64,000 nt of DNA, taken from NCBI RefSeq assembly GCF_024298765.1, contig NZ_CP101210.1; one strand, written 5' to 3'. This document shows positions 56,801-62,800 of the stretch, in pieces (position 1 is the stretch's first letter; each line of letters begins with the position of its first letter). A program made the position numbers. This DNA is from Escherichia coli (GTDB lineage: Bacteria > Pseudomonadota > Gammaproteobacteria > Enterobacterales > Enterobacteriaceae).

Positions 56801-59800
56801 GCGCTGATCAGTCCGGTTGGTCTTATCGTGGCTGCGCTTGCCGGAGCTGCCGTTCTTATCTGGAAATACTGGGATCCCATCAGGGCATTTTTTGCCGGGG
56901 TGTTCAGCGGGATTATGGAAAGGCTGACCCCGTTGCGCGAAACCTTTGAACGGTTTGGTCCTGTTTTTGACGCAATCGGAAGCGGGATCAGCCAGGTGTT
57001 TAACTGGTTTAAATCGCTGCTGTCACCGATGGAGTCCAGCAAGGAAACGCTGGATAAATGTACCAGTGCTGGCGAGATATTCGGTAACGTTCTTGGCGGT
57101 GCGTTACAGCTTGTTCTGACACCTGCAAAAATGCTACTGGATACGCTGGCGTGGATACTTGAAAAACTTGGCGTCCTTCCGGATGAAGCGGAAAAGGCGC
57201 GCAAGAAAATCGAAGACGCACAGCGTGCGGCCATTCTTCAGGACAAGGTTGCCTTGCTTCAGGGGGACCTTGCGAAAATCAATCCGCCGAAGCCTGTGGA
57301 AAATGGCAATGGCACCGGAGGTGATAAACCCAAAGACAACAAACCGCTCACAGACAGCAATACCGGGACGCTACGCAGACTCAGCAAAATTGCTGATAAC
57401 ACAGGTAAGCTGGTTGATGAGACGAAAAAACGCATTGGCCCTGGCGATATTGTCTTTAAGAACCTGCCCCGCGCACTTGCTGTTCGTGGGGAGTGGCAGG
57501 AGCGGAAGATTGCGCAGGTCAGTAAGCCTGCCCCCGCAATTAATATCACACCCGTAGTCCCGGCTCCGCTGCCTCCGGCGCTGGTCCCTGTTGTTGCGGC
57601 CAGCTCCCGCCCGGTGGCGGAGGCCATACGATCGCCAGTGGCATCAGTTCCTGCAGCTTCCCGTAATCGGGAGCCTGCTGTCTCCAGATTTGGCGGTGAA
57701 ATTCATGTTCATCTGCATAACGTTGTTACGCAGAATCCCCGCGAACTGGCGAAACTGGTCGGTGAAATGGTCAGGGCAGAGATGGAACGGCGCGCCCGTG
57801 CCGGACGTGGCAGTTTTTACGATAAAGATTGAGGAGTCATGGTCATGATGATGATCTACGGCATGTTTGTTTTTGAGCTGCGCACACTGCCGCATCAGCA
57901 GTTACAGCAAAACAAAAGCTGGCGGCATGTGAAAAATGAACGCGTTAACCGTTCAGCAAGCTGGCAGTATATAGGTGCAGGTGATGATCGCATTGTGCTT
58001 TCCGGCGTGCTTTATCCTGAAATTACAGGTGGCGAAGTGTCGCTTTCGTTGCTGACCACGCAGGCATATACAGGACGCCCCTGGCCTCTGATTGATGGTG
58101 TCGGGCAGATTTACGGCATGTATGTGCTGACTGAAACGAATACGACCCGTTCCGAGTTTGATCGCTACGGTAAGGCGAAAAAGATAGAATTTTCACTGAC
58201 CCTTGAACGCTGTGATGAGGATTTGCGGGAGCGCCTGCAATCCTCATCATTCAGCGATATGCTGTCCGGCTTCAAAGATAAGGTGACATCATCTCTTAAC
58301 AGCGCGGCCAGTTCAGTTAAAGGGCTGTTCTGATTTAACACAAAAACCGCTAATGGTCAGATTAGCGGTTATTTTGTTTCCTGACTCTTCTCTATTGTTC
58401 CGATTGATTCTCCTGCGGGGTGGTAACGATAAATCGTCGATATACCAATGCCGTAAATTATTGCCAGTTGTTTTCTGTCGTGCCCGTTTTTGATCAGCCT
58501 TGCTATTTGCTCATGCTGTTCTTTTGTCAGCTTCGGTCGACGTCCGCCTGTGCGCCCCCGTGCGCGTGCTGCCGCCAGTCCGGCCAGTGTACGTTCAACA
58601 ATTAATTCACGTTCCATTTCAGCCAGGGCACCCATCACGTGGAAGAAAAAACGCCCCATTGGAGAAGATGTATCTATGCTGTCGGTCAGACTGCGAAAAT
58701 TAATTCCTCGCTCCCGTAGTTCCCCGACGAGAGAAATCAGATGTTTCATGCTTCGCCCGAGGCGATCCAGTTTCCAGACAACCAACGTGTCACCTTTTTG
58801 AAGGCGCTTTAAAGTGCGTTTTAATCCCGGTCGGTCTGTCTTTGTCCCGCTTAATTTATCTTCAAATATTTGTTCACATCCTGCACAAACAAGAGCGTTT
58901 CGTTGCAGGTCTGTATTCTGGTCATTTGTTGATACCCTGACATAGCCAATCAGCATTCTGAATCTCCCGTCCAAAAGCGCAAATCATGCCATGCAGGCCA
59001 GAAACGGCCATTATCTAAAACCTCGGTTTACAGGAAACGGTAAACAGGGCTGGTAACGCCGTGCAAAAAAATGGCGATACCTTGTCCGGTGGGCTTACTT
59101 TTGAAAATGACTCAATCCTTGCCTGGATTCGAAATACTGACTGGGCGAAGATTGGATTTAAAAATGATGCCGATGGTGACACTGATTCATACATGTGGTT
59201 TGAAACAGGCGACAACGGCAATGAATATTTCAAATGGAGAAGCAAACAAAGCACCACAACAAAAGACCTGATGAATCTTAAATGGGATGCTTTGTCTGTC
59301 CTTGTTAAAGCCCTTTTCAGCAGTGAAGTAAAAATATCGACAGTCAATGCACTAAGGATATTTAATTCATCTTTTGGTGCTATTTTTCGCCGTTCTGAAG
59401 AATGTCTTCATATCATCCCTACCCGAGAAAATGAGGGGGAAAATGGCGATATAGGGCCACTACGCCCCTTTACGCTTAATCTCAGAACTGGTCGCATAAC
59501 TATGGGGCATGGTCTGGATGTTACAGGAGATATATTTGCAAACCGTTTTGCAATTAACAGTAGTACCGGCATGTGGATTCATATGCGTGACCAGAATGTT
59601 ATTTTGGGACGCAATGCGGTATCCACCGATGGTGCACAGGCATTACTTCGTCAGGACCATGCTGATCGCAAATTTATGATTGGTGGGCTGGGAAATAAGC
59701 AATTTGGCATCTACATGATTAATAACTCAAGGACAGCTAATGGCACCGATGGTCAGGCGTACATGGATAATAACGGGAACTGGCTTTGCGGCTCGCAAGT

Positions 59801-62800
59801 TATTCCCGGCAACTATGGCAATTTTGATTCCAGATATGTGAAAGATGTTCGACTTGGTTCACAGCAATATTATGGAGTGAACAACTGGCAAACATGGAAT
59901 TTCCAGTGCCCGTCAGGTCATGTATTGTCTGGTATTAATGTTCAGGATACAGGGTCCAACTCTGCCGATAATATAGCGGGCGTTTATTGCAGACCCGTTC
60001 AAAAGTATATAAATGGCACCTGGTATAATATAGCGAGCGTTTAATATGATGCACTTAAAGAACATAAAAGCGGGTAATGCTAAAACACTGGAACAGTATG
60101 AGTTAACAAAGAAGCACGGAGTCATCTGGCTTTACTCTGAGGACGAAAAAAACTGGTATGAGGAAGTGAAAAACTTTCAGCCAGACACCATAAAGATTGT
60201 TTACGATAAAAATCAGATTATAGTCGCTATCACCAGAGATGCTTCAACGCTTAATCCTGAAGGTTTTAGCGTTGTTGAGGTTCCTGATATTACCTCCAAC
60301 CGACGTGCTGACGACTCAGGTAAATGGATGTTTAAGGATGGTGCTGTGGTTAAACGGATTTATACGACAGATGAGCAGCAACAACAGGCAGAATCACAAA
60401 AGGCCGCGTTACTTTCCGAAGCAGAAAGCGTTATTCAGCCACTGGAACGCGCCGTCAGGCTGAATATGGCGACGGATGAGGAACGCGCACGACTGGAGTC
60501 ATGGGAACGCTACAGTGTTCTGGTCAGCCGTGTGGATACGGCAAATCCTGAATGGCCACAAAAGCCTGAATAAAAATTAAGGCCCGCTATCGGGCCTTGT
60601 CTCATTCAGGTTGTTCGGGAAACGTTACTGGCAGGCTGGAAGTGTCTGTAGATTCGACTTTCTGCGCAAAGAGCATCCACTCTGTTAATTTTTGTTTATT
60701 CTCGTCGGAAATGATGCCCAGCCGTAGCTGTGAGTCCCATAGCTGGGTTTTATCCCTGACGAGCTGTAGCAGGCTTTGCTTTTCATTTTCCGCCTGCTGC
60801 CTCTGCTCTTCCTCGGTATAAGTTCGCTTTACCACTACGCCATCTTTGAACATCCATTTACCCGAAATGTCAGCACGGCGATTTGCTGTAATATCAGGAA
60901 CCTCAACGACGCTTGCGCCTTCTGGATTAATTGCTGAAACATCCTTTTCAATACAAATAATAACGTCGTTGTGGTCATAGACCATTTTCAACGTATCAGG
61001 CTGAAAGTTCTTTTGTTCCTCATACCAGTTTTTCCCATCCTCTGTATAAAGCCATTTGATGTTAAATTGTTTCGTTAGCTGGTATTGTTCTTTTGTTTTA
61101 GGGTTGCCAGCAGTAATATTTTTTAAGTGCATCATCGTTAAATACTCCCCGCGTTATACCACGTTCCATTAATGCAATACTGAATTGGCCTTGCCTGAGT
61201 TGTATCAATTAATGCATCACGGTTTCCGTTAACTGAACCCGTAACGACATAACCTGACCTGTCAGACCAGCCGGGACCATTCCATGTCTGAACAGATGAC
61301 AGACCGCCAAGGCGAATACCTGTAATAAACCTTGAGTTACATTCTGCCTGCGTATATGCACCAACATCTCCCGCAGAGGGTTTGCGGGTCGTGGTGTAAA
61401 ACTCTGACCAGTCAGCCTCAAATCCATAACCATCACGCGCTGAACGATAAAAAATACCGCCGTTCCTGTAATTCACGCGGAACTGTACAGCAGGGCAGCT
61501 CCCCGTATTCATATTGAAGTGGAGGATTAATGTCGATGCGCCACCAATGTTTGCGTTATAGACCCCGCTATTCCAGTTCCAGCCAACAGCTTTATCATTT
61601 CCGACAGTGCTTCCTGTTTGCCCTAAAGCAAATGCAGGTTGTTGATTTTTCGTGTTGTAGTCTCGTCGCCAGCCAGGAGCATAAGCATCACCATGATTAA
61701 TATAAGTGAATTGAGCGTTAGTAATTCCGCCACCGCTGGACGTGCTCGGCGTAGTAACGCGTATGGTCATTGCGCCGCGAGTGCCAATAACTTCCACCAC
61801 AGCACCTGCAAGACAAATATTTCCGCAACCTGTATCTGTAATGACCTTATTATTTGCATAAGCCCATGAGCCTTTGCACATCCAGTAAGGATGGTTAAAT
61901 GCTCCCTGACTCTCCAGCCACGAAATAAATTGCGCAGTTGTCCAGACCTGACTATCGCCACCAATATTCAGCCATGCGCTATATGCGCGGCAGGCACCAA
62001 TGTTTTTGGTGAAGGTATCTTTTCCCGGAATATCTGCGCCGTTCTGGTTTTTCTGTAATGCGCCAGAAGCCTGATTTACCGTTTCCTGTAAACCGAGGTA
62101 TTCGATAACGGCAGCAACGGTCGATTTCGCAAGAATATCCCGCCCGACTTTTGTCAGGGTTGCCAGGCTGGCGACATCATTCCCCGTAAAATACGGAAAC
62201 TTGTCTGCCGCAGTAGCAAGCCCGGCCAGCGCCGTCAGGGTGGCATCTTTCGGTTGCTTACCCGCAAGCGCGTTAGTCATGGTGGTCGCAAAATTCGGGT
62301 CGTTGCCCAGCGCCGCCGCCAGCTCGTTCAGCGTGTTCAGTGCGTCAGGTGAAGAGTCTACAAGTGCGGCAATCGCGGCCATAACAAAAGCCGTGCTTGC
62401 GATTTGGGTATTATTCGTTCCCTGTTGTGCAGTTGGTGTTGTTGGCGTTCCGGTCAGTGCCGGGCTGTTTAATGGGGCTTTCTTGTTCGTTTCATCCATT
62501 ACCGCCTTAACCGCTTTTGGTGTCGCTGCCAGCGTTTCAGACGTGCTGTTGGTTGCACTGCTGAGCTGGACTATCCCTTTTCGTGCCGTCGTGGCGTCCT
62601 GAGCGGTATATTTTCCGTTAGCCAGGTCATACGCGGCCTTAACCGCTTTCGGCGTTGCAGCCAGCGTTTCAGAATCGCTGTTAGTGGCGCTACTGAGTTG
62701 AACAAAGCCTTTTGCGGTCAGCGAGGCGTCCGGGTGACGTCGTGACTGTTCATGCTCTTTCAGTTTGTCATCCACGTAATCCACTGTGGCCATCACCATG

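Follow-up and report, generated by a model that had tools for sequence, protein, structure and literature searches.

The DNA analysed here, which we call the window, is a stretch of 64,000 nucleotides from Escherichia coli (assembly GCF_024298765.1, contig NZ_CP101210.1), and all coordinates are positions within it. Towards its right-hand end, inside a prophage of the P2 family, a gene for a serine DNA invertase stands beside a segment of about 3 kb that holds the end of a tail-fibre gene, a second, silent fibre end and an assembly chaperone gene (tfa) for each. We read this module as a Gin/gix-type inversion switch of the Din family, and we are confident that it chooses between two receptor-binding fibre tips. 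Its parts are as follows.

58369..58956, minus strand: Gin-type serine DNA invertase gene, 195 amino acids, with its ATG at 58956; matches in Pfam, PDB and PHROG
58867..58938, minus strand: predicted recombinational enhancer (sis, Fis-binding), nucleotides 19-90 of the invertase gene, by homology
59011..59036, plus strand: left crossover site, gix-type, TTATCTAAAACC TC GGTTTACAGGAA, with its TC core at 59023..59024; beside the invertase gene
59025..62094, no strand: invertible segment, 3070 bp between the core dinucleotides
59025..60044, plus strand: silent alternative fibre C-terminus, Sv-type, 339 codons, open with no stop, without a start context of its own
60046..60573, plus strand: silent tfa, U-type, partner of the silent cassette, 175 amino acids; PHROG 136
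60579..60598, minus strand: terminator-like hairpin between the convergent tfa genes, an 8-bp GC-rich stem and a T-run; a consensus match only
60602..61135, minus strand: tfa of the current orientation, U'-type, 177 amino acids; 97.7% identical to Mu U' and 96.6% to P1 U'
61138..62094, minus strand: variable fibre C-terminus of the current orientation, S'v-type, 318 amino acids; 99.1% identical to the variable part of Mu S'
61138..63240, minus strand: whole fibre gene, 700 amino acids, the last 318 codons inside the segment
62083..62108, minus strand: right crossover site, within the fibre gene, TTATCGAATACC TC GGTTTACAGGAA, with its core at 62095..62096
62097..63240, minus strand: constant N-terminal part of the fibre, P2 H-type, about 381 amino acids, outside the segment
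58345..58370, both strands: bidirectional terminator-like hairpin, a 10-bp stem with a T-run on each strand, between the convergent U and invertase genes

The original prediction placed one crossover site within the fibre gene and had the two sites flank a pair of convergent tfa genes and an alternative C-terminus; the open reading frames and their homologies bear this out. All of the reading frames are intact, including those of the silent cassette and its chaperone. The segment has a G+C content of 41-48%, against 52-60% in the flanking tail genes, and the stretch 59011..62111 is 87% identical in nucleotide sequence to the G segment of phage Mu and 91% identical to the segment of phage P88. 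Homology to Mu ends at the right site (62112). The silent tip shares 84% of its residues with the expressed C-terminus of the P88 fibre, 70% with Mu S and 46% with the C-terminus of P2 H, and its chaperone is 89.7% identical to Mu U, P1 U and P2 G. Outside the segment, the constant part of the fibre is 82.7% identical to residues 4-378 of P2 H and 87.8% identical to the N-terminus of the P88 fibre. The hairpin at 60579..60598 lies directly 3' of the tfa gene that is predicted to be expressed at present. When 59025..62094 is inverted in silico the constant part runs in frame into the other cassette to give a fibre of 721 amino acids in place of the present 700, and both frames are open. Within the constant part we also note a direct repeat of 96 nucleotides at 76% identity (62504..62599 and 62636..62731, 132 nucleotides apart), the copies of which encode '...QLSSATNS.SETLAATPKAVKA...' and each also match residues 111-150 of Mu S.

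The two 26-bp crossover sites stand in inverted orientation and are built of 12-bp half-sites around identical TC cores. They have in common a perfect inverted identity of 25 nucleotides (59020..59044), and a repeat finder returns a 65-nucleotide inverted repeat at 78% identity with arms at 59007..59071 and 62048..62112. A search of the 64 kb with a gix-type pattern, allowing up to three mismatches, gave exactly these two sites, and none of 100 shuffled sequences contained a match. The gix site of Mu is TTATCCAAAACC TC GGTTTACAGGAA, from which the left site differs at one position and the right site at two; the pix site of e14 and the cix site of P1 have TT cores, unlike the TC found here. The alignment with known sites that had been proposed as a check thus places both with gix. 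Of the two positions predicted, that of the left site was exact and that of the right site, given as 62082..62107, was one base off. Within the left site, a TAA (59016..59018) closes the silent open reading frame on its upstream side. The right site is also present in P88 and in the prophage of E. coli O111:H8 strain 8E, and the P88 pair is identical to that of the window. No third crossover site, such as a shufflon would have, emerged at up to seven mismatches over the whole window or with a degenerate Din pattern between 57 and 64 kb; a match with five mismatches at 62942..62967 was considered as an extra site and set aside as probably due to chance, since it lies inside H and is conserved in all relatives.

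A site of the same kind occurs in P2 itself. In the H gene (P2 locus 1858..1883) the sequence TTATCGAATATC TC GGTTTACAGGAA is one mismatch away from the right site of the window, and it sits at the border of the constant and variable parts, a place equivalent to that of the right site. From its sequence it looks like a relic, or else like an entry point for cassette exchange.

The invertase has a Pfam Resolvase domain at residues 2-134 (5e-50) followed by an HTH_7 domain at residues 137-180 (6e-13). It aligns over its full length with the structures of Mu Gin 4m6f (E = 6e-100) and 3uj3 (E ~1e-99) and matches PHROG 125, 'DNA invertase'. The gene had been recognized from the outset, with an end at 58953 that drops the ATG; the real end is 58956. 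Its description as Pin-type did not hold. The catalytic domain (residues 1-134) is 95.5% identical to that of Mu Gin, compared with 85.1% for e14 Pin and 82% for P1 Cin, and the TC core of the sites is that of gix, so that the enzyme is better called Gin-type. Over the whole protein the identity is 77% to Pin and 73% to Cin. The closest relatives are the invertases of P88 and of strain 8E, both at 97.9%. The active-site residues Ser9 (in MLIGYVRVSTNDQ), Arg7, Asp64, Arg65 and Arg68 are all present. Residue 114 is the wild-type methionine; substitution of this residue by valine (M114V) makes Gin independent of Fis. In Hin, residues Q151, R154 and L155 and the basic residues 47, 48 and 51 form the invertase-specific contacts to Fis and the enhancer (PMC3798978). 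Alignment with the Hin domain 1HCR finds the same Q, R and L in helix 1 of the DNA-binding domain, and the basic residues K46, R47 and K50 (Gin numbering) are likewise in place.

The DNA-binding half appears to have a different history. Nucleotide homology to Mu gin ends at about nucleotide 389 of the gene (58568), the point at which the catalytic domain gives way to the DNA-binding domain, and the 3' third (58369..58567) encodes a domain about equally far from those of Gin, Pin, Cin and Hin (48-57% over residues ~135-195, with 47.5% to Gin). Its recognition helix (STIYRY) resembles that of Hin. The break at the domain junction, together with the distance of the DNA-binding part, points to a recombinant invertase gene. 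Upstream of the break the first 390 nucleotides of the gene and the spacer to the crossover site are 91% identical to gixR-gin of Mu, and the region between site and start codon is conserved with it. An enhancer in the 5' part of the gene had been proposed; we place the predicted element at 58867..58938, where 72 of 72 nucleotides are identical to Mu gin and where the homologous stretch of P1 (cin nucleotides 19-90) is annotated in the P1 record as 'enhancer of Cin-mediated C-segment inversion'. On this homology it is probably bound by Fis. A scan with the pattern G-N13-C finds several 15-mers that would fit a Fis site, for example at nucleotides 22-36 and 71-85 of the gene, and none was assigned.

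Both orientations of the segment exist in nature. In E. coli O111:H8 8E the same leuZ locus is occupied by a prophage almost identical to that of the window (99.3% identity across the left junction). The 8E sequence is colinear with the window once the segment of the latter is flipped, over 8,002 bp at 98.8%. If the segment is left as sequenced, the alignment splits into three parts, of which the middle one runs in reverse, and the breaks fall at the two sites; the junctions show a clean reciprocal exchange inside the 25-nucleotide identity 59020..59044, which includes the core. The annotated fibre of 8E (locus 5476..7641) is 721 amino acids long, exactly the length obtained by flipping the segment in silico. 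Phage P88 was also deposited in the flipped state relative to the window. These natural isomers support the invertible segment of about 3.1 kb that had been proposed. Prophages at the leuZ site of four further strains (G12, MSHS 133, 22AR0750 and CT265), which match the left prophage junction best, lack the module; they were excluded from the comparison of orientations and 8E was used instead. For a count in the population we used queries of 1,001 nucleotides centred on the H-side junction and scored a junction as contiguous when at least 80% of the query was covered in one place. The junction observed in the window was contiguous in 125 complete E. coli genomes, with identities up to 98.9%, and the junction flipped in silico in 170. 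Each of the two isomers is thus common in nature.

The anatomy, the reading frames, the homology and the two isomers are direct observations, and from them a mechanism can be proposed. The right site splits the fibre gene so that the promoter and the first ~381 codons, of P2 H type, stay outside the segment; within it the two alternative C-terminal cassettes face each other, and behind each comes the chaperone gene that belongs to it. An invertase dimer would occupy each of the 26-bp sites, the synaptic tetramer would be activated by the enhancer, with Fis bound to it, near the start of the invertase gene, and cleavage of both sites at the TC core followed by a rotation of 180 degrees would invert 59025..62094. 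Gin-type invertases are known to bind their sites as dimers, to need a Fis-bound enhancer for the active tetramer, to cleave at the core by means of Ser9 and to exchange strands by subunit rotation (PMC3575834; PMC3798978). In the current orientation transcription of the late operon (I, J and onwards) would run across the constant part and on into the S'-type tip and its U'-type chaperone gene, as far as the hairpin at 60579..60598, which should give the 700-residue fibre with a Mu S'-type tip, assembled by a U'-type chaperone, and a specificity like that of Mu G(-). After inversion the 721-residue fibre would carry the Sv/P88-type tip with the U/P2 G-type chaperone, a state resembling Mu G(+), and the lysate of an induced culture would be a mixture of two host-range types.

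That the two orientations would yield particles of different host range is suggested by the 99% identity of one tip to Mu S'v and the 84% identity of the other to the P88 fibre tip. For Mu, both the mechanism and the host ranges of G(+) and G(-) have been described (PMC3575834; PMC4406740): G(-) particles infect E. coli C, Shigella sonnei and Citrobacter freundii, and also Enterobacter cloacae, Serratia marcescens and Erwinia (PMC4406740). The fibre tip of P88 has been found by experiment to set the host range of that phage, in a paper that makes no mention of inversion (PMC5285337). We infer activity in the sequenced strain, dependence on Fis and the actual receptors, and we regard the module as real and very probably functional.

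Several observations weigh against a working switch. The evidence for inversion is a comparison between genomes, at the level of the population. The two sites differ from each other at two outer half-site positions, and the low identity of the DNA-binding domain to those of known invertases bears on whether this enzyme recognizes gix-type sites, as we infer that it does; the counterpoint is that the same type of invertase stands beside both isomers, in P88 and in 8E. A scan of the minus strand upstream of the invertase gene for sigma-70 consensus promoters gave no candidate. In SfMu, a Mu-like phage with a G segment, there was no host-range evidence of inversion (PMC4406740), and the presence of the module therefore does not guarantee switching. 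Taken together with the apparently dead relic site that P2 keeps in H, these points could be read as describing a frozen relic, in which the invertase has fallen silent or has lost its match to the sites and the fibre is fixed in the S'-type state. We consider this unlikely. Every reading frame has stayed intact, down to the unexpressed cassette and its chaperone, and the catalytic and Fis-contact residues are conserved, as is the region from the site to the start codon shared with Mu gixR-gin. The same type of invertase (97.9%) and the same pair of sites are moreover seen with the segment in either orientation, and both types of junction are common.

The isomers themselves might have arisen in another way, through rare RecA-dependent homologous recombination between the arms of the inverted repeat. 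Those arms do reach past the 26-bp sites, and the exchange can be placed only to within the 25-nucleotide identical stretch. Uninterrupted identity is however limited to these 25 nucleotides, and a length of this order is near or below the minimum for efficient recombination by RecA. A dedicated, intact invertase with an enhancer identical to that of Mu lies alongside, the two isomers are both frequent (125 and 170 genomes), as expected for a fast reversible switch, and analogous loci of P2-like prophages flip at percent-level frequency within single colonies (PMC4272514). We judge the RecA explanation very improbable. Least probable of all, to the point that we give it hardly any weight, is a mis-joined repeat in the source assembly. 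Inverted repeats and populations of mixed orientation can mislead assemblers, but 125 complete genomes, independent of one another, show the same contiguous arrangement with identities of up to 98.9%, and the reading frames are intact in both orientations. The Gin/gix-type switch remains the reading that we favour.

Set beside known systems, the module corresponds in detail to the G segment of Mu, as the original prediction had recognized. The geometry is the same (constant part, site, Sv and U facing U' and S'v, site, and an invertase transcribed away from the segment), as are the length of about 3.07 kb and the core dinucleotide; at the amino-acid level the identities to Mu are 99% for S'v, 97.7% for U', 89.7% for U and 70% for Sv, and the enhancer stretch is identical. 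The differences lie in the constant part of the fibre, which is of P2 H type here rather than Mu Sc, in the DNA-binding domain of the invertase and in the host of the module: Mu is a transposable phage, whereas the module is carried here by a P2-family prophage. The locus is a Mu G-segment architecture grafted onto a P2-type fibre. It has what characterizes the Din family, namely a Ser recombinase of ~190 amino acids with the contact residues, paired inverted sites, a predicted enhancer and, at the population level, inversion (8E, P88 and the 125 against 170 genomes); and it has what characterizes the Mu G type, a split fibre gene with two convergent pairs of C-terminus and chaperone inside the segment. 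It does not fall within the narrower Pin (e14) subtype, being nearer to Gin and having a TC core.

The P segment of e14 with Pin and the C segment of P1 and P7 with Cin are alike in belonging to the Din family and in having a split fibre gene with two cassettes. They are unlike the present module in their TT cores and more distant invertases, and in P1 cin is transcribed towards the segment, with cixL overlapping its 3' end. Fels-2 and SopE-phi have a comparable invertase. P2 shares the constant part of H, the G protein (89.7% identical to the silent tfa product) and the gix-like site; as had been stated for canonical P2, it lacks the invertase and the second cassette. A second site is also absent from P2, and Z/fun occupies the slot.

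Phages P88 and 520873, of the genus Xuanwuvirus, share the synteny of the whole locus, and their RefSeq records annotate a 'DNA invertase', two tail fibre and two tail fibre assembly proteins; 520873 differs in having a partly different Sv cassette. The nearest published experiments concern the P2-like prophages of enteropathogenic E. coli (EPEC) E2348/69, in which invertible fibre loci have been described (Goldberg et al. 2014, PMC4272514). For such loci in two of the prophages both orientations were found within single colonies, by sequencing reads and by PCR (PMC4272514). Like the module described here they combine an invertase with alternative fibre C-termini and tfa genes downstream of a P2-type fibre gene. 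They differ in being pix-type with a TT core, in having segments of ~1.6-2.0 kb, one of them a three-site shufflon, and in lying directly upstream of FI in a prophage of canonical P2 gene order. The EPEC inversions support this kind of system and not this exact module. The system is in any case already known, since the Gin/G-segment switch is textbook material and the module has been annotated and published in P88-like and P2-like prophages.

What is of mild interest is the mosaic character of the invertase, with a Gin catalytic half and a different DNA-binding half, and the sharp edge of Mu homology at the crossover site. A tentative reading, to which we give somewhat less than an even chance, is that the module has a mosaic ancestry: a chimeric invertase built on half of Gin, a G segment that is a mobile cassette, and the site in H as its point of entry. 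The catalytic domain of Mu Gin, with the enhancer, may have been joined to a different DNA-binding domain with a Hin-like helix. The end of Mu homology at the right site and at about nucleotide 389 of the invertase gene suggests a travelling unit, the 5' half of gin plus the G segment, that is passed around among Mu-like, P1-like and P2-like phages. Such cassettes would enter at the gix-like site that P2-type H genes have conserved, and the chimeric invertase might act in trans on other Din-type segments of the same genome.

The practical consequences are modest. A 'hypothetical' or 'partial' fibre open reading frame annotated at 59061..60044 is the silent cassette and no pseudogene, and either orientation of the region is legitimate in a genome assembly. 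The two host-range types predicted for an induced lysate would be relevant to users of P88-like phages or fibres.

The chromosomal part of the window (uvrY, uvrC, pgsA and glyW-cysT-leuZ) matches E. coli genomes at 99.7%. The glyW-cysT-leuZ tRNA cluster (47745..48047) lies directly to the left of the prophage end, and the prophage begins just to the right of leuZ with a gene for an Ogr-like protein (49393..49653, minus strand) and gpD as its first genes. The genes around the module are a P2-family set of tail and baseplate functions by their PHROG assignments, in agreement with the P2-like prophage proposed originally. By sequence we assign the prophage to the P2 family (Peduoviridae), genus Xuanwuvirus, as P88-like; its nearest phages are P88 and 520873, with conserved synteny and 92-97% nucleotide identity.

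The order of genes is D (minus strand), FI-FII-E-T-U (plus), invertase (minus), segment, fibre (minus), I and J. The FI-FII-E-T-U block (51491..58333) thus lies on the strand opposite to that of D, the fibre gene and the baseplate genes. In P2 the order is H-G-FI-FII-E-T-U-D, relative to which the block is inverted here, and the inversion is kept in P88 and 520873. No gix-like site flanks the block at up to seven mismatches to the left site, searched over the whole window; the inversion is therefore a fixed trait of the genus, and we rejected the idea that it forms part of the switch. The module sits in the Z/fun hotspot, the variable slot that follows the fibre-assembly gene. This part of the predicted location between G and FI stands, whereas FI is not the neighbour: with the block turned round in comparison with P2, it is the 3' end of U that borders the module. 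DNA invertases have been reported to occur 'often' in the Z/fun hotspot of P2-like phages, with adjacent genes inverted (bioRxiv 10.1101/2024.10.15.618418).

The prophages of G12, MSHS 133, 22AR0750 and CT265 are 99.7% identical to the window across the left junction. They have neither the invertase nor the second cassette, and the slot that corresponds to 58334..61135 holds a 'transferase' gene together with one tfa and one fibre tip, both different from those of the window. Cargo may therefore be present or absent at the position that follows U.

Two open reading frames near the left end of the prophage stand apart from the tail genes. One of 131 amino acids (48475..48870), within the interval 48050..49390 to the left of the Ogr-like gene, has no family match. 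The other (49873..51360, plus strand), between the Ogr-like gene and gpD, encodes 495 amino acids with a Lys-rich tail and has no match in Pfam, PADLOC or NCBIfam. Its G+C content is 33-40%, against 52-60% in the neighbouring phage genes, and 94 complete E. coli genomes share its context; we regard it as a candidate for a moron or defence cargo in the third hotspot of P2 phages (bioRxiv 10.1101/2024.10.15.618418).

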